From NCBI GenBank assembly GCA_964537135.1, contig CAZHZC010000006.1, positions 6,669 to 70,668 of the forward strand: a stretch of DNA of 64,000 nucleotides, written 5' to 3'. This stretch comes from an uncultured Rikenella sp. (GTDB lineage Bacteria; Bacteroidota; Bacteroidia; Bacteroidales; VadinHA17). The notes beneath the pieces were generated by a model. It was not told the origin of the DNA, ran no database searches, and saw only the letters and a program-made list of their open reading frames with translations. Below, piece by piece: positions 6,637 through 59,071 of this stretch; position 1 is the first letter of the stretch, and each line of letters starts with the position of its first letter. Made by a program: the position numbers and the translations under genes.

Positions 6637-6680
6637 TCTGTTTATTCTTTGCGTTAATCCGTTTTTATCCTAAATAATTT

Positions 6681-48088: not shown

Positions 48089-48529
48089 ATGATTAGAGAT
48101 CACCTGGCCGAAGCCTCTGAGATGTTCAGCTCAGGCTTTAACTGTGCTCAGGCTGTGGCACTCCCTTTCTGTGAAGAGTATGGTGCTGACCGTGCCACCC
48201 TGCTGAAGGTCACTGCCGCCTTTGGCGGTGGTTATGGCGGAAGCGGAAGGACCTGTGGTGCGGTGACGGGCGGCCTTATGGTGATTGGCGCCAGGTATGG
48301 CTCCCTTCACCCTGCAGACCACACCTTAAAAAATATAATAGCCGAAAAGAGCCTCGCGCTTATTGAGTGCTTCACCCGGGCACACGGCACCCTGATGTGC
48401 AGTGAGCTGACAGCACCGGCGAGGCGGCAGGGGAGCGATTCCGGCAGTACATTCACTGCCGTGGAGATGATCAGACTCTGTCCCCGGTTCCTGGAGACGG
48501 TCATAATTTTCCTTGAAGAGGAGCTGTAA
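48089..48529 (+). CDS. C_GCAxxG_C_C family (putative redox-active) protein
   Basis: 146 aa with FNCAQAV, TCGAVTG, LMCSEL and RLCPRF, which is the family's Cys pattern. First gene of the aldehyde oxidoreductase operon. Confidence 0.8.
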   Translation: MIRDHLAEASEMFSSGFNCAQAVALPFCEEYGADRATLLKVTAAFGGGYGGSGRTCGAVTGGLMVIGARYGSLHPADHTLKNIIAEKSLALIECFTRAHGTLMCSELTAPARRQGSDSGSTFTAVEMIRLCPRFLETVIIFLEEEL

Positions 48530-48568: not shown

Positions 48569-51490
48569 ATGAGACTGAGAAAAATGTGGCTTAATATCAA
48601 CGGTGTCAACAGGATGTTCATGTGCAACCCTGAGAAGGACTCCCTTGCTGATGTCATTCGGCGTATGGGACTTACCGGTACCAAGGTGGGTTGTAATACC
48701 GGGGTCTGCGGCTCCTGCTCGCTGATACTGAATAATAAACTTGTTCGCGCTTGCACCAGGAAGATCAGGAATGTGGAGGAGTACAGCAGCGTGGTAACCA
48801 TTGAAGGCATCGGGACGCCGACCAACCCGCATCCGCTGCAGGTGGCATGGATGAATGCCGGGGCGGTGCAGTGCGGATTCTGTACTCCGGGGTTCATCGT
48901 CTCATCCTATGCCCTGCTGCTTGAAAACAACAAACCTACCCGTGAGGAGGTGCGTGACTGGTTCCACAAGCACAAGAACGTATGCCGCTGTACCGGTTAT
49001 GTGCAGATAGTTGATGCTGTCATGCTGGCGGCTGAGGTGATGAGAGGCGAAAAGAGTATAGAGGATATAAGTTTTAAGGATCCTGCTGATGGTGAGTATT
49101 ATGGTAAACCGGTGGTCAGGCCGACCGCCCTGGCCAAGGTGTGCGGGCTGGCTGACTATGGTGATGACCAGGAGCTTAAGATGCCTGCCGAGACACTCAA
49201 GGTGGCCCTTGTACAGCCGCGGGTGGCGCACCATGCAAAAATCCTCTCCATAGATACCTCTGAGGCAGAAAAGATGCCGGGCGTATATAAGATTGTCACT
49301 GCACAGGATATCAAGGCTGCCGGCGGCACCAACCTGATGGCTGAAGGTCACTTCCATGAGCGCACAACCCTGGTGGTGCCTACCAGGCATGTGCTGGCTG
49401 AAGATAAGATCTTCCGGTATGGTGATGTGGTGGCCCTGGTATGTGCCGATACCAGGGAGCATGCCCGTGAGGCAGCTGAAAAGGTGAAGGTGGAGATAGA
49501 AAAACTGCCTGAATACCTTAACTATCTTGATGCCGTGATGCCCGATGCCATGCGTATCCATCACGATACCCCCAACCTCTTCGCCATGCAGCCGGTACTT
49601 AAGGGAGAGGGACTTGATGATCCGGCAAAGGTGGCTGAGATAATAGAGAGCTCACCATACAGTGTGGAGGGAAGCTTCTATTCAAGCAGGGAGCCTCACC
49701 TCTCAATAGAGGGTGATACCATACAGGTCTACTACGATGAAGATGACATGCTTACCATACAGTGTAAGTCGCAGGGGGTCTACTCCTCAATAGGACGAAT
49801 AGGTAACTCGGTAGGGGTGCCCAAGAGCAGGATCAGGGTGGTGATGAACCCCACCGGCGCCAGCTTCGGATGGTCAACCAATGCCGGTAACCTCTGCCTG
49901 GCTGCTGCCGCCGCCGTGGTGACCGGCAGGCCGGTGGCTCTCTCTATGAGCTATGAAGAGCACCAGCACTTCTCAGGCAAGAGAAGACCCAGCTACTCTA
50001 ATGGCAGGGCAGCATGTGACAGTAATGGTAAGATCACTGCGGTGGAGTTTGACTACGGGCTTGACCAGGGTGCCTACACCTTCGGTGGAGATGATATTAT
50101 CACCAAGCCGGCCCGCTTCTCATTCTTCCCCTATAGCATACCCAATGTGGCCGGCCTCTCGCGTATAGCTATCACCAACCATAACTTCGGAACAGCATAT
50201 CGCAGCTACGGCTCACCACAGGCATACACCCTGAGTGAAGCGCTGGTGGATATGCTGGCTGAGAAGGCAGGTATTGACCCGTTTGAGTTCCGCTGGCGGA
50301 ATATAGCACGTGAGGGTGAGACAAATATCAACAGCAGACCCTTCCGCCTCTATCCGATGGAAGAGATGATGAAGACCATGAAGCCGCACTATGAGCAGGC
50401 GGTGAGAGAGGCAAAAGAGAAGAGCACACCCGAAAAACGTCGGGGCGTCGGACTTGCATGGGGTGGGTTTAATGTCTCGGAAGGACCGACAGACCATGCT
50501 ACCGTACGGCTGCAGCTCAATTCTGACGGCACCATAACCAAGTATGACACCTGGCAGGAGCTGGGACAGGGCGGCGACATAGGGTCACTCATGGTTACCC
50601 TCGAGGCCCTGAAGCCACTGAAGATAAAACCTGATCAGGTCAAACTGATACAGAGTGATACAAAAATATGCCCCGACAGCGGAATGTCAGCCGGCAGCCG
50701 GTCTCACTACATGAACGGCAATGCAACAATCGTTGCTGCCAGAAAGCTGATGGATGCCATGCGCAGGGAGGATGGTTCATACCGTACCTATGATGAGATG
50801 GTTAAAGAGAATATACCTACTGTCTATGAGGGTAAATTCAGCAATGTGGCTACACCCGGACTGACACGTCTCGATCCCAATACCGGTATAGGAGACCCGA
50901 CACCAGCCTTTACCTATGCTCTTAACCTGGCTGAGGTGGAGGTAGATATCAACAGCGGCAAGACCACGGTGGTGAGGTTTGTATGTGTGGCTGACGTTGG
51001 CAAGGTGGGTAATATCGATTCGGTGAACGGACAGGCCTTTGGCGGAATATCACACAGCATCGGGTTTGCACTCTCTGAGAACTATGATGATGTAAAAAAA
51101 CATACCAACATAGCCAGCAGCGGAGTACCCTATATAAAGGATATCCCTGATGAGGTGATACTACACTACAATGAGAGCCGTGACCTGCACGGTCCCTTCG
51201 GCTCTTCCGGCGCATCAGAGGCATTCCAGTCGTCAGGACATATGGCGGTGCTCAATGCCATCAACAATGCTACAGGCGTGAGGGTGCATGAGCTGCCGGC
51301 CACAAAGGAGAAGGTGAAGGAGGGTATTGAGAGACTCGCCAGAGGTGAGAAGCCCTATGCTCCCGGCAAATATTTCCTCGGCTCAGACCTCTATGATGAG
51401 CTGGAGAATATGAAAGCCAATCCGGTACCCTATGGCGGTGACGACTTTTTCAAGCCAATGGGGTCAGACGGCGCTGAGAAGTTCTTCTGA
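48569..51490 (+). CDS. Molybdopterin-dependent aldehyde oxidoreductase (Mop type: two [2Fe-2S] domains + Moco domains, no FAD domain)
   Basis: 973 aa. The N-terminus aligns by eye to Desulfovibrio gigas MOP (GLTGTKVGCNTGVCGSCSLIL...CGFCTPG...CRCTGY). AGGAGG lies 7 nt upstream of ATG 48569. ATG 48584 is an alternative start. Confidence 0.9.
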   Translation: MRLRKMWLNINGVNRMFMCNPEKDSLADVIRRMGLTGTKVGCNTGVCGSCSLILNNKLVRACTRKIRNVEEYSSVVTIEGIGTPTNPHPLQVAWMNAGAVQCGFCTPGFIVSSYALLLENNKPTREEVRDWFHKHKNVCRCTGYVQIVDAVMLAAEVMRGEKSIEDISFKDPADGEYYGKPVVRPTALAKVCGLADYGDDQELKMPAETLKVALVQPRVAHHAKILSIDTSEAEKMPGVYKIVTAQDIKAAGGTNLMAEGHFHERTTLVVPTRHVLAEDKIFRYGDVVALVCADTREHAREAAEKVKVEIEKLPEYLNYLDAVMPDAMRIHHDTPNLFAMQPVLKGEGLDDPAKVAEIIESSPYSVEGSFYSSREPHLSIEGDTIQVYYDEDDMLTIQCKSQGVYSSIGRIGNSVGVPKSRIRVVMNPTGASFGWSTNAGNLCLAAAAAVVTGRPVALSMSYEEHQHFSGKRRPSYSNGRAACDSNGKITAVEFDYGLDQGAYTFGGDDIITKPARFSFFPYSIPNVAGLSRIAITNHNFGTAYRSYGSPQAYTLSEALVDMLAEKAGIDPFEFRWRNIAREGETNINSRPFRLYPMEEMMKTMKPHYEQAVREAKEKSTPEKRRGVGLAWGGFNVSEGPTDHATVRLQLNSDGTITKYDTWQELGQGGDIGSLMVTLEALKPLKIKPDQVKLIQSDTKICPDSGMSAGSRSHYMNGNATIVAARKLMDAMRREDGSYRTYDEMVKENIPTVYEGKFSNVATPGLTRLDPNTGIGDPTPAFTYALNLAEVEVDINSGKTTVVRFVCVADVGKVGNIDSVNGQAFGGISHSIGFALSENYDDVKKHTNIASSGVPYIKDIPDEVILHYNESRDLHGPFGSSGASEAFQSSGHMAVLNAINNATGVRVHELPATKEKVKEGIERLARGEKPYAPGKYFLGSDLYDELENMKANPVPYGGDDFFKPMGSDGAEKFF

Positions 51491-51498
51491 TCATACCT

Positions 51499-53736
51499 AT
51501 GGCTTACCTGCATCCGCTGGTTAAAGAGTGTATACAGTATGAACGGGCATTTTGTACTGCAAGATGCCCGTTCGGCCTTGATGTGCGTGACTTTGTCATG
51601 AAGATCACGCAGGGCCGTTTTAATGCTGCCTACAAGACCTACCAGTACAGCGTGGGCTTCCCCGGTATAGTCTCACGGTTATGTGATGAGCCGTGCCGCC
51701 TGGTGTGCCCGATGCATGAGCATGGAGGTGCTATCGCAATGCAGAGGCTCGAGCAGGCTGTGATGCAGCATGCCAGGTCACAGATGCCTGACCAGTACAA
51801 CATGCCCCCCAAGGAGGGCAGGATAGCTGTTGTGGGAGGAGGGATCAGCGGACTGGCCTGTGCGCTGAGGCTCGCCACCAGAAAGTACCAGGTGACGGTG
51901 TATGAGCGCAGTGACCGCGTGGGAGGGCACCTGCATCAGCTCATGCCCTCCGGGCTCCTGATGGCTGACATTGAGATGCAGTTTGCACATGAGAACTATG
52001 AGCTGCTGGCTGATAACAACATAACAGACCTGCAGTCGCTGAACCATGATGCTCTCTATGTGGCCACCGGGAAGGGTGGTGACCGGTTCGGACTTGAGAA
52101 GAGCGATGAGGGACCGTTCGCTACCAACCGTAAAGGGGTCTTTATGGGAGGGTCACTGACCGGCGCCGGCACCATGAAGGCTATTGCTGACGGACTGGCT
52201 GTGGCCGGAGTGATTGAGGCGTACCTCAAGACAGGAAGCATGACCCACGAGGCAGGCCCGGGAGAGGAGACAAAGCTACGCCGTGAGGTGATAAGGGTGG
52301 TGGCTGCCGATGAAGTATGGCCGGGAGATAACGGTATATATACGCGTGAGGAGGCACGCGCCGAGGCCGGGCGATGCCTCAGGTGCAGCTGTGATGCGTG
52401 CGTGCACTACTCACCATTGCTGGCATATTACAGCAAGTTTCCAAGGAGACTGACTGAAGAGGTGGAGGTGACAATAACACCCAGCTCACTCGACGGGGAG
52501 GCTACACTGGTAACCAGGCTGATATCGTCATGCAACCACTGCGGGCTGTGCAGGGAGGTGTGCCCCGTGGATATTGATACGGGTGCGTTCCTGCTGGAGA
52601 GCCACTACACCATGCGCGAGAAGGGTAAGATGCCATGGGCATTCCACCATTTTTATCTGCGTGATATGGCGTTTGCCAACAGCGAGGCGGCAGTGGCAAA
52701 AATGCCGGCAGGAAGCTCTTCAGCCCGTTACATGTTTTTTCCGGGCTGTCAGCTGGGTGCCTCCGACCCTGAGCTGGTACGACAGAGCTACAACATGCTC
52801 CTGGTCCATTACCCTGAGACAGCACTGCTGGCACACTGCTGCGGCGCCCCGGCAGACTGGGCCGGCGAGAGGGAGATACATCAGCAAACCATCACCTCTG
52901 TCAGAAACGAATGGGTGAGGATGGGAAAACCGGAGGTGCTCCTCGCATGCCCCATGTGCCGGCAGATGTTTCAGAGACACCTGCCCGAGATACCTGCACG
53001 GTTCATCTATACGCTGCCGGGCGTTAAGGGAGCGGTACCTGCTCTGGTCAACAACGTGGCAGCATCGGTCTTTGACCCTTGTGCGGCCAGAGATGAGCCA
53101 CAGCTGCAGGAGAGAGTGAGAGAGATAGCCAGAGAGGCGGGGTTTGACCTGAGACCGCTGCCGATGGAGGGGAAGATGGCTGAGTGCTGCAGCTATGGCG
53201 GCCAGGTGGCAGTGGCAAACCCCGGGTATGCCGGGCAGTCAGTAAAAAAGAGGATTGAGCAGAATGATCTGCCATATATAACCTACTGTTCAAACTGCAG
53301 GGATATATTTGCCAGGGCAGGAAAGAGAACATGGCATATACTGGAGCTGATACTGGGAACAGAGACACAGCGGCAGCCGACACAATCTGACAGGAGACGC
53401 AACAGGCTGCGGCTGAAGGAGAGCATGACAGAAGATAATCGTACTGAAGAGGAGAGAACCATGAAGAAGGAAGAGGAAAAGGAAAAGGGAGAACTGATCA
53501 TTTCAGATCAGCTGCGTGAGAAGCTTGACAGGGAGCTGATCCTGGAGCAGGATGTGATTGAGGTGATAAGAGCCTGTGAAGAGAGTGGCAATAAGTTGTA
53601 TGACCCGGCAAATGACAGTTTTACAGGACATCAGATGGTCGGGGAGATGACATGCTGGGTGGTCTACAGGGACAGGGATGATGGCCGACGGGAGCTGGTT
53701 AACAGCTACTGCCACCGAATGAAGATTGAGGAGTAG
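51499..53736 (+). CDS. Multidomain flavo-FeS protein: GltD-like N-terminus, FAD/NAD(P) Rossmann, 4Fe-4S dicluster, two CCG (HdrB/GlpC-like) Cys-rich domains, extra C-terminal domain
   Basis: 745 aa with VVGGGISGLACALRLA, CNHCGLCREVCP, FFPGCQLG...CCGAP and DPCAARD...ECCSYGG. Lies 8 nt after the oxidoreductase gene. Confidence 0.8.
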   Translation: MAYLHPLVKECIQYERAFCTARCPFGLDVRDFVMKITQGRFNAAYKTYQYSVGFPGIVSRLCDEPCRLVCPMHEHGGAIAMQRLEQAVMQHARSQMPDQYNMPPKEGRIAVVGGGISGLACALRLATRKYQVTVYERSDRVGGHLHQLMPSGLLMADIEMQFAHENYELLADNNITDLQSLNHDALYVATGKGGDRFGLEKSDEGPFATNRKGVFMGGSLTGAGTMKAIADGLAVAGVIEAYLKTGSMTHEAGPGEETKLRREVIRVVAADEVWPGDNGIYTREEARAEAGRCLRCSCDACVHYSPLLAYYSKFPRRLTEEVEVTITPSSLDGEATLVTRLISSCNHCGLCREVCPVDIDTGAFLLESHYTMREKGKMPWAFHHFYLRDMAFANSEAAVAKMPAGSSSARYMFFPGCQLGASDPELVRQSYNMLLVHYPETALLAHCCGAPADWAGEREIHQQTITSVRNEWVRMGKPEVLLACPMCRQMFQRHLPEIPARFIYTLPGVKGAVPALVNNVAASVFDPCAARDEPQLQERVREIAREAGFDLRPLPMEGKMAECCSYGGQVAVANPGYAGQSVKKRIEQNDLPYITYCSNCRDIFARAGKRTWHILELILGTETQRQPTQSDRRRNRLRLKESMTEDNRTEEERTMKKEEEKEKGELIISDQLREKLDRELILEQDVIEVIRACEESGNKLYDPANDSFTGHQMVGEMTCWVVYRDRDDGRRELVNSYCHRMKIEE

Positions 53737-53740
53737 TGCC

Positions 53741-53935
53741 ATGGAGGAGAAGAGGGTACTTATTTGCCATAAATGCAACAGGGAGCTGGAGATGAGACGG
53801 ACAGACTTCACATACCTGGGACATACATTCCATACAGACCTGCCACGCTGTCCGGAGTGCGGAATGGTCTATATCTCTGAAGAGCTGGTGAAAGGGCGTA
53901 TTTCAGATGTGGAGACACAGCTCGAAGATAAATAG
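53741..53935 (+). CDS. Small zinc-ribbon protein (YgiT-like CxxC...CxxC)
   Basis: 64 aa from ATG 53741: MEEKRVLICHKCNRELEMRRTDFTYLGHTFHTDLPRCPECGMVYISEE. GAGGAG upstream. 4 nt after the previous stop and 1 nt before the radical SAM start. Confidence 0.65.
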   Translation: MEEKRVLICHKCNRELEMRRTDFTYLGHTFHTDLPRCPECGMVYISEELVKGRISDVETQLEDK

Positions 53936-53936
53936 T

Positions 53937-55364
53937 ATGGATCACCGTGAAACTATTGCCTCCACCTGGAGCCTCTGTCCGGTATGCCTGAAGAGAGTGC
54001 CGGCTGAGAGGGTCAGACAGGGGAGGATGATCTTCCTTGAGAAGGAGTGTCCGGAGCATGGAGCCTTCAGTACCGTTATCTGGCGTGGCTACTATGACTT
54101 TGCACGGCGCGCTGCCAGCAGCGGTGAGCTCTTCACCGCCGAGCCGGAGTGTCCCGACAGGTGCGGGCTGTGTGATGACCATCAGCAGAAGACATGCTGC
54201 ACACTGCTCAATGTGACCGATAACTGTAACCTGGGATGCCTCTTCTGCCTGGCTGACCAGAGAAATGGCTCCACAGACCCGCCGCTGGAGAGAGTGAAGG
54301 AGTCACTTGAGAGACTGGTGGTAAAGGGCAGGACACTGGTACAGCTCAGCGGAGGAGAGCCTGCCACGCGTGATGACCTGCCCGACATCGTGGCGGCAGC
54401 ACGTAAGGCAGGAGCCAGGTACGTACAGCTCAACAGTAACGGGATCAGGCTGGGAGAGGAGCCTGACTACGTTAAGAGACTGGCTGATGCCGGACTCTCA
54501 TTCCTGTTTTTACAATATGACGGTACCGATGATCAGATAAACCTTAAGCTGAGGGGAAGAAGCCTGATAGAGATTAAGCAGCAGGCCATCAGCAACTGTG
54601 CTGACCATGGTATCGGTGTGACACTGGTACAGACACTGGTGAGGGGTGTCAACCTCAACAATATAGGTGAGCTGATACGCTATGCCGTGACAGCGTCACC
54701 GGCAGTGCGGGGGATACACTTTCAGCCGGTGAGCTATTTCGGCAGGATACCCGCCATGCCGGATGACAATGACCGTATAACAATGGATGAGCTCCTCTGT
54801 GAGATTGAACGGCAGACCGGCGGAATGGTCGGCGCCGACTATCTGAGACCATCATGCTGTGACCACCCGCTCTGTAAATTTCATGGTGACTTTGTGGTTA
54901 CACCTGACAATAACCTTATGCCGCTGCACAAGGAGCCGGCAGCGGGAATCGCGTCGTGTGCAGTGCAGCCCCCCGGGGCGCTCTCCTTTGCGGAGCCGGC
55001 CCCCGGAAAGCACCCCTCGGCTGATCCTGCTTCCGGAAACACCTCATGTGCGGAGCCTGCCGCCACTGCTGACATGGATAATAGGCGGCTGCAGGTAGCA
55101 GCCGACCGTAACAGGGAGTTTATCGGGAGGCGCTGGAGCAGGCCGCAGGGAGCGGCAGAGGCAGTGCCGCCGTCAGGTGATATGCACGATATGGACTACT
55201 TCCTCTGGAGAGCAAAGAACTATGGTTTTACCATCACCTCAATGATGTTCCAGGATGCCGGAAACATTGACCTTGACCGGCTGAGAAAGTGTGGATTCCA
55301 TGTGTGGGACAACGGCAGGCTTATCCCTTTCTGTGCCAACTATCTTACCCCGTGGCAGCGATGA
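53937..55364 (+). CDS. Atypical radical SAM enzyme with N-terminal zinc ribbon and additional Cys motifs
   Basis: 475 aa from ATG 53937. C14xxC17...C38xxH41. C72x3C76x2C79 plus C87C88. Canonical C97x3C101x2C104 (CNLGCLFC). Downstream SCCDHPLCKFHG. Low-complexity A/P/S/G insert near the C-terminus. Confidence 0.85.
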   Translation: MDHRETIASTWSLCPVCLKRVPAERVRQGRMIFLEKECPEHGAFSTVIWRGYYDFARRAASSGELFTAEPECPDRCGLCDDHQQKTCCTLLNVTDNCNLGCLFCLADQRNGSTDPPLERVKESLERLVVKGRTLVQLSGGEPATRDDLPDIVAAARKAGARYVQLNSNGIRLGEEPDYVKRLADAGLSFLFLQYDGTDDQINLKLRGRSLIEIKQQAISNCADHGIGVTLVQTLVRGVNLNNIGELIRYAVTASPAVRGIHFQPVSYFGRIPAMPDDNDRITMDELLCEIERQTGGMVGADYLRPSCCDHPLCKFHGDFVVTPDNNLMPLHKEPAAGIASCAVQPPGALSFAEPAPGKHPSADPASGNTSCAEPAATADMDNRRLQVAADRNREFIGRRWSRPQGAAEAVPPSGDMHDMDYFLWRAKNYGFTITSMMFQDAGNIDLDRLRKCGFHVWDNGRLIPFCANYLTPWQR

Positions 55365-55987
55365 GTGGGAACGGTGATACCGCGGTGAGAAGGCCTGGAG
55401 GGTTCATTATCACTGACAGGGCATTGACTTTCTGCGGGCTGCCGGAGGGTGCTGCTGTACTTGACATAGGATGCGGCTCGGGAGCTACCGTGATGCACAT
55501 GAGAAGCCATTATGGCTACACCGCCTGGGGGATCGACAAAAGGGGCGGGAACGGTAGCAGCTACCTGAGAGAGGGGCAGGGTGAGAGGATACCCTGGCCA
55601 GACAACTCATTCGACGCCGTAATGATGGAGTGCAGCTTTACACTGATGGATGACCAGTGCGCAGTGCTGAAGGAGTGCCTGAGGGTGCTTGTGCATGGCG
55701 GCAGGCTGATCATCTCCACCATCTATGCGTTGGGTGAGCCGGCAATACTGCCAGAGAGCATAGGACGGATAGAGAGTCGTGAAAACCTTCTCCGTAAGAT
55801 AGAGCAGCACCGGTTTAAGACTATCCTCTTTGAAGAGTATACACCCCACCTGAAAACCATGTGGGGGCAGATGATAATGGAGCGGGGGGCCGGGGCGCTC
55901 TATCAGACCCTCGGCGCAGACTATGATGAGATGAGACGTATCAGGTGCGGATACTGCCTGATCATTGCAACAAAGGAGGATCAGTGA
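55361..55987 (+). CDS. Class I SAM-dependent methyltransferase
   Basis: 208 aa from ATG 55361 (ATGA overlap with the radical SAM stop). Motif I VLDIGCGSGATV. The post-I acidic residue is not confirmed by eye. Confidence 0.8.
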   Translation: MSGNGDTAVRRPGGFIITDRALTFCGLPEGAAVLDIGCGSGATVMHMRSHYGYTAWGIDKRGGNGSSYLREGQGERIPWPDNSFDAVMMECSFTLMDDQCAVLKECLRVLVHGGRLIISTIYALGEPAILPESIGRIESRENLLRKIEQHRFKTILFEEYTPHLKTMWGQMIMERGAGALYQTLGADYDEMRRIRCGYCLIIATKEDQ

Positions 55988-57262
55988 ATGGGCTCTCCCG
56001 TGACGGAATGGACAGCCGGCAGGAGCGGACTGCCAACGGGCCATAGCTATGAGGAGATGAGAGAGTGGCAGGGCAGATGCCTGGATGAGACGCTGAGCTA
56101 TGCAGCACACAACACCAGGTTCTATAGTGAGAGGGTCAAGCCGGGGATGAGGCTCGATGAACTCCCTTTTACCTGTCCGGATGACCTGGCTGCAGACCCG
56201 CTGGCATTTCTGGCTATACCCCGCAGCAGCGTGGCAAGGGTGACAACCCTGGCAAACTCAGGCACTACACTCCTCAGGAAGAGCATATTCTTTTCCGGTG
56301 ACGACCTGCAACGGACCAGGGACTTTTTTGCTGCAGGCATGAGAAACCTGGTCACCAGAGGTGAGAGGGTTGCCATATTGATATCAAACCTCACTGAGAA
56401 CAGCCTCGGCTCACTCCTCCATGAGAGCCTCCTGCAGATAGGTGCCCTGCCCGGCCTAAAAGGAGTGATACGGTCGGCAGAGGAGGCGCTGGAGGCTGCC
56501 CGTGGCGCAGACTGTATCGTCGGCATGCCCGCCGAACTGCTCTATATGTGCCGCAGAGACCCATCACTGAGGCCGCGGACAGTACTGCTGGCAGCAGATA
56601 TCGTCCCGGAGGCGGTCAGGGAGGCAGTGAGGAGCGCCTGGAGGTGTGACCCCTACATACACTGGGGACACTCCGAGCTGGGATATGGCTGTGCTGTCGA
56701 CTGCTCATATCATGAGGGTCTGCACCTGCGTGATGCCGAGATGATCTTCGAGATCATTGATACCAATACCGGCAGGCCACTGCCACAGGGCAGCAGCGGT
56801 GAGATAGTTGTTACCACCCTCACCCGCAGGGCGATGCCCCTGATCCGTTATCGTACAGGACACTTTTCATCACTGTTAGCTGACCCGTGCGGCTGCGGTG
56901 GTGTGCTGCCGCGACTGGGGCGGATAGAGGGCAGAATGACCGACGCCGTGACCCTGCCGGGAGGAGAGACCATTGATATGCTTACGCTGGATGAGATACT
57001 CTTCTCAGACCCCGCCGTCAGAGGATTTGAAGCTGTATTGGAGCTGCGGGATCGGATGGGAGAACGGGATCGGATGGGAGAATGGGATCGAATGAGAGAA
57101 CGGGATCGGATAGCGGTATTGAAGCTGCTGATAGATGCTGACACAGATGTGGATATCAGCTCACTGGTGAAGAGAGTGCCGGAGGGGACCATGGTTGAGA
57201 GTCATCGGGGAGAGGCCGACCCGTTCGCCAGACGCAGAAAAAGAAGGATAGCAATTGTGTAG
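55988..57262 (+). CDS. PaaK/F390-synthetase-like adenylate-forming (AMP-dependent) ligase
   Basis: 424 aa. The start abuts the methyltransferase stop (0-nt gap), with AAGGAGG upstream. Has an NSGTTLLRKS P-loop-like motif and GEIVVTTL...PLIRYRTGH. An 18-bp repeat lies in the C-terminal subdomain. Confidence 0.7.
   Translation: MGSPVTEWTAGRSGLPTGHSYEEMREWQGRCLDETLSYAAHNTRFYSERVKPGMRLDELPFTCPDDLAADPLAFLAIPRSSVARVTTLANSGTTLLRKSIFFSGDDLQRTRDFFAAGMRNLVTRGERVAILISNLTENSLGSLLHESLLQIGALPGLKGVIRSAEEALEAARGADCIVGMPAELLYMCRRDPSLRPRTVLLAADIVPEAVREAVRSAWRCDPYIHWGHSELGYGCAVDCSYHEGLHLRDAEMIFEIIDTNTGRPLPQGSSGEIVVTTLTRRAMPLIRYRTGHFSSLLADPCGCGGVLPRLGRIEGRMTDAVTLPGGETIDMLTLDEILFSDPAVRGFEAVLELRDRMGERDRMGEWDRMRERDRIAVLKLLIDADTDVDISSLVKRVPEGTMVESHRGEADPFARRRKRRIAIV
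57048..57118. repeat. 18-bp in-frame tandem repeat, about 3.7 copies ((R)DRMGE hexapeptide)
   Basis: cgggatcggatgggagaa x2, then tgggatcgaatgagagaa, then cgggatcggatagcggta. Confidence 0.9.
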
Positions 57263-57268
57263 TAACAC

Positions 57269-58084
57269 TCAGACGGTTTTACCATCTTTCATGATACATA
57301 TCTTGCGGGCACAGTAGTGGAAAAGGTGGTAGCCAGAACCACACTCACTCACCAGAGGGAACAGCATCTCAGGCCTGGTTATCTGGGTGGCTCCAATAAC
57401 AGTTACCTTGTTACGGAACAGCACGTCGGGAATAATACTGCTGGAGGGGCCGGTAACAATAACCGTGGTACCGGGGGCGACAGCAGCCAGCAAACCATCT
57501 ATGGTGTTGTTGACAAGGGTCATGCCGGTGATGATGACAATCTCGGAGGAGGGAAGGATGGAGGCATATTCATCGGCCGGCACAAAATATTGCATCTGGT
57601 CAGATGAGAGAGTGTCAGGGTCAAGCTCAAGCACCTTCAGACGGCTGCCATAGCCTGAGAGCCGGTGTATGTACGACTGAAAAGCACCTACCAGGGTGAT
57701 CAGACCCCTCTTCTCCGGGTCGACCAGCTCAATGGGATCCATGTCAGGAATGATGGTGTAGGCGCCGTTTGCAAGGTGAGCAGATGAGATGGCATTCAAT
57801 ACGGCAATCCTCACCGAATCAATCATCGCGTTCTGCTTAGGAGTCTCAAAGAGTGAGGTGACACTGCTGCCAGCCACCTTTGTCGGACTGAACTCACCGT
57901 AGTCACGGCCCTTGCAGCTGGCATGCCTCTCTGTCTCAGGCAGGGTGCTGGCAACACCATGGGAGCCGTCAGAGAGTCTCACCGCCGTCAGACGTGCACC
58001 TATTACCAGCTTGTCTATCATGAGTCTCTTCAGGCGCTCACTCTGCATGCTCCTGACAAAATCGTATGTCTCTTTAATAATCAT
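57269..58084 (-). CDS. DUF4213/DUF364 Rossmann-like (putative metal-chelation) protein
   Basis: 271 aa. Recognised by overall pattern (VIGARLTAVRLSDGSHGVAST... N-domain; ITLVGAF...VIITGMTLVNNT... Rossmann half). Its stop is only 6 nt from the convergent ligase stop. Confidence 0.6.
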   Translation of the reverse strand: MIIKETYDFVRSMQSERLKRLMIDKLVIGARLTAVRLSDGSHGVASTLPETERHASCKGRDYGEFSPTKVAGSSVTSLFETPKQNAMIDSVRIAVLNAISSAHLANGAYTIIPDMDPIELVDPEKRGLITLVGAFQSYIHRLSGYGSRLKVLELDPDTLSSDQMQYFVPADEYASILPSSEIVIITGMTLVNNTIDGLLAAVAPGTTVIVTGPSSSIIPDVLFRNKVTVIGATQITRPEMLFPLVSECGSGYHLFHYCARKICIMKDGKTV

Positions 58085-58134: not shown

Positions 58135-58908
58135 TTACTCCTCTGACTGCATCCTGTTTCTTACATCTATCAGCTTGGCAACAATGCTGATAGCAATCTC
58201 TGACGGAGTCACTGCATTGAATTTTATACCGATAGGCATATCTACCCTGTCTAGCTCCTCACCGGTGAGTATCTCCTCTTTCAGGAACCTCCTGCGGAGT
58301 GTCTCAATCTTCCTTTTACTGCCGATAAGCCCTATATATGCCGCCTCCCTCTTCCCTACCGCGGCAAGGATATCCTCATCCATCTCATGGTTGGGTGTTA
58401 CTATCACGATGTAGCTCTGCCGGTCAAAGGTGATCTCGCTGACAGCCTCCAGGTAGGGTCTCACCATGACTGAGTACTCATGAGCACCCGGTTCGTGAAG
58501 CAGCTCCTCACGCCAGTCGATCACACAGGTCTCAAAGTCGAGCCCTGAGGCATATTGTGCCAGTTGGGCACCGATGTGTCCGGCACCGAAGATGTAGAGC
58601 CTGGCACTTTTGCGCAATGGCTCGATATAGACGGTCACGCTGCCGCCACAGGTCATAGACAGGTCAGCACCCAGGTTGTACTCTCTCGAGACAGTGCCTC
58701 CCCTGCGTATCACCTCCAGCGCATCCTCAATAACCTGCTTCTCGATAGCACCACCCCCGACGGTGCCGTCAATGGTACCATCACTGAAGACTATCATCTT
58801 CGCGCCCGCCTTTCCGGGAACGGAGCCCCGTATGGCAGTTACTATACAGAGCGCTGAGAGACGCCTCTCTTCAAGGGCGTGTATCACTTTATTGTAAAAC
58901 TTGCTCAT
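58135..58908 (-). CDS. xdhC: XdhC/CoxI family molybdoenzyme maturation (Moco sulfuration/insertion) factor
   Basis: From ATG 58908: MSKFYNKVIHALEE...ALCIVTAIRGSVPGKAGAKMIV..DG...GTVGGG, then the Rossmann half LYIFGAGHIG. The track start at 58929 is GTG. Confidence 0.85.
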   Translation of the reverse strand: MSKFYNKVIHALEERRLSALCIVTAIRGSVPGKAGAKMIVFSDGTIDGTVGGGAIEKQVIEDALEVIRRGGTVSREYNLGADLSMTCGGSVTVYIEPLRKSARLYIFGAGHIGAQLAQYASGLDFETCVIDWREELLHEPGAHEYSVMVRPYLEAVSEITFDRQSYIVIVTPNHEMDEDILAAVGKREAAYIGLIGSKRKIETLRRRFLKEEILTGEELDRVDMPIGIKFNAVTPSEIAISIVAKLIDVRNRMQSEE

Positions 58909-59071
58909 TCTTAAACAGGTTGTGCTCACCGGAACCCTCCTGACACTGTCACAGAGCGGGAGCTGTTTCTTTATGCTAATGGCCGTAAAACTACCCTGAT
59001 TATTGTAATTAATGCATAACTAAAGTCATGGTTTGATATCGGGCAGTGGCCTGTGCAGAGCAGCACCCGAA

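Follow-up and report, generated by a model that had tools for sequence, protein, structure and literature searches.

A cysteine-form TrsS radical SAM protein in a molybdenum aldehyde oxidoreductase cassette, from a family that is probably a bacterial sister to archaeal tetraether lipid synthase

To which family does a radical S-adenosylmethionine (SAM) enzyme belong when its canonical CX3CX2C box is preceded by a ribbon-like N-terminus and a second cysteine box, and what might such an enzyme do beside a molybdoenzyme? The question is raised by a gene at 53937..55364 (+) in a 64,000-nucleotide stretch of DNA from an uncultured Rikenella sp. (Bacteroidota; Bacteroidales; VadinHA17), which corresponds to positions 6,669 to 70,668 of contig CAZHZC010000006.1 (GenBank assembly GCA_964537135.1) and is called the window hereafter. 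We find that the gene is a regular cysteine-form member of TrsS, an already named and curated family of radical SAM (seleno)proteins with a catalogued neighborhood. The overall explanation that we favor is that TrsS, in turn, is probably a sister family, in bacteria, to GDGT-MAS/Tes, the tetraether lipid synthase of archaea. For the window, the outcome is mainly a clean annotation, in which the extra cysteine motifs acquire structural counterparts and a low-complexity insert is explained. More broadly, the TrsS cassette is widespread in anaerobes, where TrsS accompanies one of the best-studied molybdenum enzymes.

The family assignment follows from profile searches. The protein scores 502.3 bits against NCBIfam NF045646, named "radical SAM (seleno)protein TrsS" (curated cut-off of 490), in a match composed of two stretches that flank the insert. 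The second-best NCBIfam match is the Tes model NF045702, at 294.6 bits against a cut-off of 450, while the models for MoaA (66-68 bits, cut-offs 284-325), PqqE (53 bits, cut-off 381), and other SPASM families (32-58 bits, cut-offs 265-650) fall far short of membership. In Pfam, an HMPTM zinc ribbon (PF23545, residues 7-50, E 3.8e-20) is followed by Radical_SAM (PF04055, residues 92-249) in an HMPTM-type architecture, and no SPASM domain is detected in the protein at E <= 0.001. The nearest database relative of the window protein is 57% identical. TrsS is catalogued as a selenoprotein family in a 2026 review (PMC13188914), where it is credited to Haft & Tolstoy 2025, mSystems 10:e0141724.

The gene model itself is straightforward. 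As the first-pass annotation of this locus had described, the open reading frame is uninterrupted, translating to 475 aa, and the stop codon (TGA, 55362-55364) overlaps the ATG of the following methyltransferase gene (55361-55363) in an ATGA arrangement. An alternative upstream ATG at 53907 would yield a 485-aa product, but we favor the start at 53937 because the homologue alignments begin at its Met and because a 64-aa zinc-ribbon gene (53741..53935) finishes one base earlier, with which a start at 53907 would overlap. The residue positions that had been read from the sequence (C14, C17, C38, and H41; C72/C76/C79; CC at 87-88; C97/C101/C104) are exact, and the further motif noted downstream corresponds to SCCDHPLCKFHG at residues 306-317.

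Structure searches place the protein with a single solved relative. GDGT-MAS is the sole full-length relative in the PDB by sequence (7TOL), with E-values of 5e-69 when the window protein alone is the query and 1.8e-98 with a profile built from 20 TrsS proteins. We also predicted the structure of TrsS with AlphaFold2, obtaining a mean predicted local distance difference test (pLDDT) of 75 and a predicted template modeling score (pTM) of 0.80. In the fold comparison of this model, the GDGT-MAS structure 7TOM is matched over the whole length (E 9e-34, TMq of 0.72, 28% identity), and MoaA, SkfB, viperin, NifB, and HydE are matched in the core only, with template modeling (TM) scores of 0.32-0.39 (0.35-0.39 for MoaA). 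These profile and fold comparisons, which the first-pass annotation had proposed as a check, bear out both its description of the enzyme as not MoaA-like, there being no full-length homology to MoaA or SPASM enzymes, and its placement with archaeal "pterin-methylase" and lipid-crosslinking radical SAM enzymes, as the PF23545 and Radical_SAM pairing points to this group and so does the relative of known structure that ranks first in both the sequence and the fold comparison.

What does the resemblance to GDGT-MAS mean at the level of metal sites? GDGT-MAS has four metallocofactors: a mononuclear Fe in a rubredoxin-like site (C9-X2-C12-X20-C33-X2-H36), an N-terminal [4Fe-4S] cluster with C73, C77, C80, and a His as ligands, the radical SAM cluster, and a further, C-terminal [4Fe-4S] cluster of which Met439 is a labile ligand; a C-S bond between substrate and cluster has been trapped in this enzyme (PMC9433317). 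To transfer these positions we used HMMER alignments, in which the PDB chain number equals the native GDGT-MAS number plus 20, and we assessed conservation in 110 homologues drawn from genome loci of several phyla (111 sequences with the window protein). The alignments show that TrsS has the predicted sites for all four metallocofactors and the residues with which a GDGT-MAS-type enzyme binds SAM, all of them invariant, with the inherited ligands kept overall in 107-110 of the 110 homologues.

Taking these sites from the N-terminus, the first is a putative rubredoxin-like domain (residues 7-50, 53955..54086, +; PF23545), whose C14-X2-C17-X20-C38-X2-H41 has spacing identical to that of the GDGT-MAS Fe site and whose Cys and His are found in 109-110/110 homologues. 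The first-pass annotation had called this a Zn ribbon; the motif stands, and its spacing is that of an iron site. Next is C72-X3-C76-X2-C79 with H82 (54150..54182, +), a predicted N-terminal auxiliary [4Fe-4S] motif that aligns with C73/C77/C80 and the His of [Fe4S4]N and is kept in 107-110/110; this is the second CX3CX2C box for which an auxiliary metal site had been suspected, and such sites now match the four GDGT-MAS cofactors motif for motif. The canonical radical SAM box (C97, C101, C104; 54225..54248, +; PF04055) follows, with Cys in 110/110. The residues that would bind 5'-deoxyadenosine (5'-dA) are R206, Q263, S266, and R270, corresponding to R210, Q268, S271, and R275 of GDGT-MAS. 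Finally, a C-terminal auxiliary-cluster segment (M436, C452, H455, C466; 55224..55334, +) aligns with the region of GDGT-MAS Met439, C455, and C470, such that M436 corresponds to Met439, C452 to C455, and C466 to C470, each of the three kept in 110/110. The set of ligands that is invariant in TrsS, including the family-specific C87, C308, and C313 described below, is complete in the window protein, every one of them being kept in 102-110/110 homologues.

Several observations weigh against this reading. The margin over the NF045646 cut-off is only 12 bits, because the insert splits the match, and the AlphaFold2 model is of moderate quality (pLDDT 75). At the C-terminal site, C438 and Y459 of GDGT-MAS are not retained, being S435 and V456 in the window protein; the position of Tyr459 is Val or Ile in 104 of the 110 TrsS homologues. 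Moreover, in the stretch that leads from the core to the C-terminal cluster segment, the TrsS profile is ~40 residues shorter than GDGT-MAS and does not align with it, so the C-terminal site is remodeled, with only part of its ligands matched. The aldehyde oxidoreductase that otherwise accompanies TrsS is missing within 8 kb in about a quarter of the related loci, and many of the loci in this quarter are on short contigs. Lastly, no TrsS member has been characterized, and both mechanism and electron route are assigned by analogy alone.

Beyond the sites shared with GDGT-MAS, TrsS has cysteines of its own. The first is the pair C87-C88 (54195..54200, +), where GDGT-MAS reads ..STT..; C87 is Cys in 110/110 homologues and C88 in 85/110. 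The second is the motif P-S-C-C308-D-H-P-L-C313-K-F-H-G (54849..54887, +), which has the family form P-S-x-C308-D-H-P-L-C313-x-F-H-G and lacks a counterpart in GDGT-MAS (FYPVPSVAP). Within it, C308 is Cys in 102/110 and C313 in 110/110, and C307 is variable among the homologues. A third element is a loop Cys pair specific to TrsS, aligned with C341 and C371 and kept in 101 and 103 of the 110, respectively. These extra motifs are not chance occurrences, because, save for C88 and C307, their Cys and His are kept in 101-110/110 homologues across several phyla. Lack of conservation of the extra cysteines had been named beforehand as a finding that would count against the first-pass reading, and the 110-homologue alignment shows the opposite.

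The most telling property of these cysteines is that two of them are exchanged for selenocysteine (Sec) in other bacteria. Among 268 Synergistota genomes, TrsS is found above cut-off in 44, and ten hits contain one in-frame TGA, of which we read eight. In four of these (L133-L136, from genomes G1246, G1251, G1248, and G1245; 588-596 bits), the TGA lies in ...PPG-U-EHSLCSWHGDF, in the column of C308. In the other four (L137-L140, from genomes G1140, G1144, G1153, and G1168; 467-487 bits, slightly below the cut-off), it lies in ...FG-U-SFVVEVTRRCDL, in the column of C87, with Gly or Val at position 308 and C313 retained. Both reading frame and conservation run on past the TGA in all eight, the selenocysteine synthase SelA is above cut-off in all eight genomes, and the Sec form of L133 is located in the same oxidoreductase cassette as the window gene. 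The replacement by Sec at exactly these positions argues that C308 and C87 would be chemically active and not merely structural. Since the two Sec positions are the TrsS-specific C308 and C87, and not ligands of the lipid synthase, they are the residues likeliest to carry the family's own chemistry.

A selenocysteine insertion sequence (SECIS) element, for which the first-pass annotation had suggested looking, was not detected by Rfam in the Sec-form loci. We do observe hairpins 3' of the UGA, a conserved one of 7 bp beginning 16 nt on in L137-L140 and one of 6 bp beginning 3 nt on in L133-L136. They are only suggestive as SECIS elements because they are located within conserved coding sequence.

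Searches elsewhere yielded no Sec forms. There is no in-frame TGA in TrsS across the 80 genome loci that form our synteny set (see below), none in the 40 TrsS genes above cut-off from 401 genomes in the phylum to which the Desulfobacterales locus belongs, and none in the 28 from 401 genomes in that of the Syntrophomonadaceae locus, where the single match with one TGA (genome G996) is a true stop codon. A similar match in a genome of the same order as the window (L003) proved to be a Tes-like paralogue with a normal stop. A metagenome scan for Sec at C313 (DHPL-TGA-x-FHG) gave three chance matches only. Short C-terminal fragments were also considered as possible split Sec genes, and the five that we fetched were a frameshifted assembly (L130), two contig-end truncations (L131, L132), and a pseudogene with a deletion, seen in Desulfosporosinus fructosivorans (L128) and in a sequencing run (L129). 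The remnant in L128 (5830-6594) encodes ~200 aa of TrsS with the radical SAM core internally deleted, and around this apparent pseudogene the genes for the oxidoreductase, the flavo-FeS protein, the zinc ribbon, and the ligase are still in place.

The window copy carries Cys at both 308 and 87, and its membership in TrsS stands since the family name allows Cys forms. Its genome encodes SelD with an adjoining YedF-like gene (contig C2, 205774-207569) and the selenouridine synthase SelU (contig C4, 52229-53188), and SelA and tRNA-Sec are absent from it (40 tRNAs). Without these two components the genome cannot decode Sec, and the window gene is thus a true Cys form, as the first-pass annotation had proposed from the uninterrupted reading frame. 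Selenium appears to be used in this genome for tRNA modification only. We had also considered the orphan SelD as a sign of a selenium-dependent molybdenum hydroxylase, a candidate that we reject as SelU accounts for SelD.

In the window copy, the loop that bears the TrsS-specific Cys pair also contains the lineage-specific insert (residues 335-379, 54939..55073, +), which is rich in Ala, Pro, Gly, and Ser. The first-pass annotation had placed a roughly 50-aa low-complexity insert at about 54930..55080; its presence is confirmed, and its extent is revised to 45 aa. Here, the DNA contains a degenerate 30-bp tandem repeat of 2.4 copies (54989..55061, Tandem Repeats Finder), local G+C content reaches 0.71, and pLDDT falls below 50 over residues 341-390 of the AlphaFold2 model. 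Loop length between residues 333 and 392 is variable in the family: 104 of the 111 sequences have 12-25 aa (mostly 13-19), six others have 25-85 residues at the same site, and the window protein, with 59 aa, is the second longest. The insert therefore looks like a predicted-disordered repeat expansion of a variable surface loop, a habit of the lineage and not a functional module. Similar runs are seen elsewhere in the same genome. The PaaK-like ligase gene of the cassette contains an in-frame 18-bp tandem repeat of 3.6 copies encoding RDRMGE units (57047..57111, +), and in the SelD region cited above (contig C2, 205774-207569) SelD has a GPEGPEGPEGPE tail and the YedF-like protein an EKGEKGERGEK linker. 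The window genome seems prone to in-frame repeat expansions.

We next turn to the neighborhood, which we compared with 80 related loci from Bacteroidota, Bacillota, Synergistota, Acidobacteriota, and Desulfobacterota. In the window, TrsS is part of a co-directional array that begins with a C_GCAxxG_C_C family protein in its Cys form (48089..48529, +; TIGR01909, 65 bits against 47.4; PF09719). This is followed by a molybdopterin-dependent aldehyde oxidoreductase of the Mop type (48569..51490, +; NF045668, 1155 bits against 1100; 53/80 loci) and a pyridine nucleotide-disulfide oxidoreductase/dicluster-binding flavo-FeS protein (51499..53736, +; NF045663, 747.7 bits against 530; Pfam Fer4_20, NAD_binding_8, Fer4_17, and CCG; 57/80 loci). 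Next comes the 64-aa DVU_1557-family zinc ribbon with a CxxC...CxxC pattern (53741..53935, +; NF045645, 82.2 bits against 60), which is present in 54/80 loci, mostly 3-100 nt upstream of TrsS. Downstream of TrsS are a DVU_1556-family class I SAM methyltransferase (55361..55987, +; NF045667, 166.5 bits against 155; 53/80 loci) and a DVU_1553-family PaaK-like adenylate-forming ligase (55988..57262, +; NF045666, 330.3 bits against 300; 53/80 loci). Successive gaps from the C_GCAxxG_C_C protein to the ligase are 39, 8, 4, 1, -4, and 0 nt. The five families that are catalogued as TrsS neighbors (NF045668, NF045663, NF045645, NF045667, and NF045666) are thus all found above cut-off, adjacent and on the same strand, in an order shared by most of the 80 loci; where these genes are lacking, the locus is in many cases a short contig. 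A literature search for functional studies of the D. vulgaris locus tags of this cassette found none.

Two further genes converge on the array from the opposite strand. One encodes a DUF4213/DUF364 "putative heavy-metal chelation" protein (57269..58084, -; PF04016, E 1.4e-34; PF13938, E 5.8e-10) and is found in 8/80 loci, all of them from Bacteroidota. The other encodes an XdhC-family molybdenum cofactor (Moco) insertion/maturation factor (58135..58929, -; PF02625, PF13478; 25/80 loci), which scores below cut-off against both NF045664 (212 bits) and TIGR02964 (142.8 bits). Two side observations concern the array itself: the 64-aa zinc-ribbon gene, overlooked in the first-pass annotation, occupies what had looked like a gap separating the flavo-FeS gene from TrsS, and the window aldehyde oxidoreductase is ~50 residues longer than its family model (match to 5-920 of 973; window 51250-51490).

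Gene fusions in related loci point to physical partnership among these products. In several organisms, TrsS carries an N-terminally fused DUF5714 domain, which bears a distant resemblance to C_GCAxxG_C_C proteins (P0004, P0006, P0013, and P0048; 665-695 aa). In addition, an 820-aa protein combines TrsS with a G3E-family P-loop GTPase (L086, 6900-9362), and a 600-aa protein combines the methyltransferase with the PaaK-like ligase (L061, 7048-8850).

How might such an enzyme work, and on what? By analogy with GDGT-MAS, SAM would be cleaved reductively, and the 5'-dA radical would take a hydrogen from an unactivated C-H bond. The substrate radical may then be parked on, or coupled at, the remodeled C-terminal cluster region, as in GDGT-MAS, with the Cys or Sec at 308 or 87 as a possible redox or nucleophilic partner. 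The low-potential electrons could come from aldehyde oxidation by the Mop-type oxidoreductase and travel through the flavo-FeS and small zinc-ribbon proteins to TrsS. As to the substrate, we tentatively prefer a small molecule over Moco or a protein, one on which the coupled methyltransferase and the PaaK-like ligase would act as well; this is our best guess. A protein partner ranks second and is unlikely, a pterin comes third with a very small chance, and a membrane lipid is last, being scarcely credible.

Of the alternative explanations, the one that survives best is that TrsS is a protein-directed maturase of the aldehyde oxidoreductase, the C_GCAxxG_C_C protein, or the zinc ribbon, into which it would introduce a radical-mediated modification (e.g., a crosslink of thioether or selenoether type). 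TrsS is strictly co-located with these candidate targets, with the zinc-ribbon gene usually just upstream, and the DUF5714 fusion argues for direct partnership; Cys/Sec chemistry at the TrsS-specific positions would suit such a role as well. Nonetheless, we consider a maturase unlikely. Neither a SPASM, a twitch, nor a RiPP (ribosomally made, post-translationally modified peptide) recognition domain is found in the NCBIfam and Pfam searches, and the cassette includes a methyltransferase of small-molecule type and the PaaK-like ligase. Desulfovibrio gigas Mop, for which high-resolution structures exist, is not known from them to bear any unusual modification of the protein, which also weighs against this explanation. 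Furthermore, the closest characterized relative, GDGT-MAS, works on a lipid and not on a peptide (PMC9433317).

A more speculative idea, which we rate as improbable, is that C87, C308/C313, and the loop Cys pair together form a fifth, family-specific reactive site in addition to the four predicted metal sites. In such an enzyme, a single chalcogen nucleophile, the Cys or Sec at 308 or 87, would either trap the radical formed on the substrate or serve to transfer sulfur or selenium. The cassette would then perform an undescribed radical modification needed by the Mop aldehyde oxidoreductase, whose target could be a cofactor, a carrier of electrons, or a partner protein. If this were true, the window copy would be the all-Cys, selenium-independent version of a fifth-site enzyme.

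The next alternative is that TrsS modifies a pterin, namely, Moco or its molybdopterin cytosine dinucleotide (MCD) form, together with the adjacent methyltransferase, in the manner of the methanopterin C-methylase activity once assigned to Methanocaldococcus jannaschii MJ0619. Names and location speak for it: the Pfam domain is named for HMPTM, some homologues are annotated as "7,8-dihydro-6-hydroxymethylpterin dimethyltransferase," and the gene lies beside a Moco enzyme and XdhC. We regard this as very unlikely, however, as Pfam finds no cobalamin-binding or other methyl-carrier domain in TrsS. The MCD cofactor in the D. gigas Mop structures is not known to be modified, and this likewise weighs against a pterin substrate. 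The authors of the GDGT-MAS study, moreover, could not corroborate the pterin-methylase assignment and showed MJ0619 to be a lipid synthase (PMC9433317).

Could TrsS then be a lipid synthase itself? Here, the distribution of the two families is informative. Among 301 genomes sampled from the phylum to which the window belongs, TrsS is above cut-off in the window genome only, and 25 of the 301 genomes carry a different, Tes-like paralogue that scores 192-368 bits against the TrsS model, below its cut-off (L003-L013 are among these loci). In L003, this paralogue is located beside membrane-protein genes without the oxidoreductase cassette, and it differs in its C-terminal motifs, having no equivalent of Met436; it is absent from the window genome. 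That the window gene is a true Tes/GDGT-MAS orthologue making membrane-spanning lipids is therefore barely conceivable, as the full-length fold match to 7TOM/7TOL and the second rank of Tes among NCBIfam matches are outweighed by the sub-cut-off score to NF045702, the loss of Y459 and C438, the ~40 fewer residues of the TrsS consensus in the C-terminal region, a cassette with no lipid genes, and the existence of this separate Tes-like paralogue in Bacteroidota.

Returning to TrsS as a sister family of GDGT-MAS, its position is best summarized by comparison with known systems. With the GTP 3',8-cyclase MoaA, TrsS shares the radical SAM core, over which ~200 residues align, whereas MoaA lacks both the N-terminal ribbon and the N-terminal cluster domain, and its best model scores 68 bits against a cut-off of 325. 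With GDGT-MAS/Tes (M. jannaschii MJ0619; 7TOL, 7TOM; PMC9433317), it shares the overall fold at a TMq of 0.72 and 28% identity, the rubredoxin-like site, the N-terminal CX3CX2C and His motif, the radical SAM motif, the Arg/Gln/Ser/Arg set predicted to bind 5'-dA, and the labile Met and two Cys of the C-terminal cluster segment. Of Met439 and Tyr459 of GDGT-MAS/Tes, both strictly conserved in the archaeal homologues, the former is kept as M436 and the latter is replaced by V456. TrsS differs from the lipid synthase in having gained C87(C88), the PSxCDHPLCxFHG motif, and the loop Cys pair, in lacking equivalents of C438 and Y459, and, in the window, in being located in a molybdoenzyme operon with no lipid context. 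Within TrsS, the window copy is a Cys form, with Cys rather than Sec at 308 and 87, and is set apart by its 45-aa repeat-derived insert, and it shares with the family every invariant Cys, His, and Met as well as the same neighborhood.

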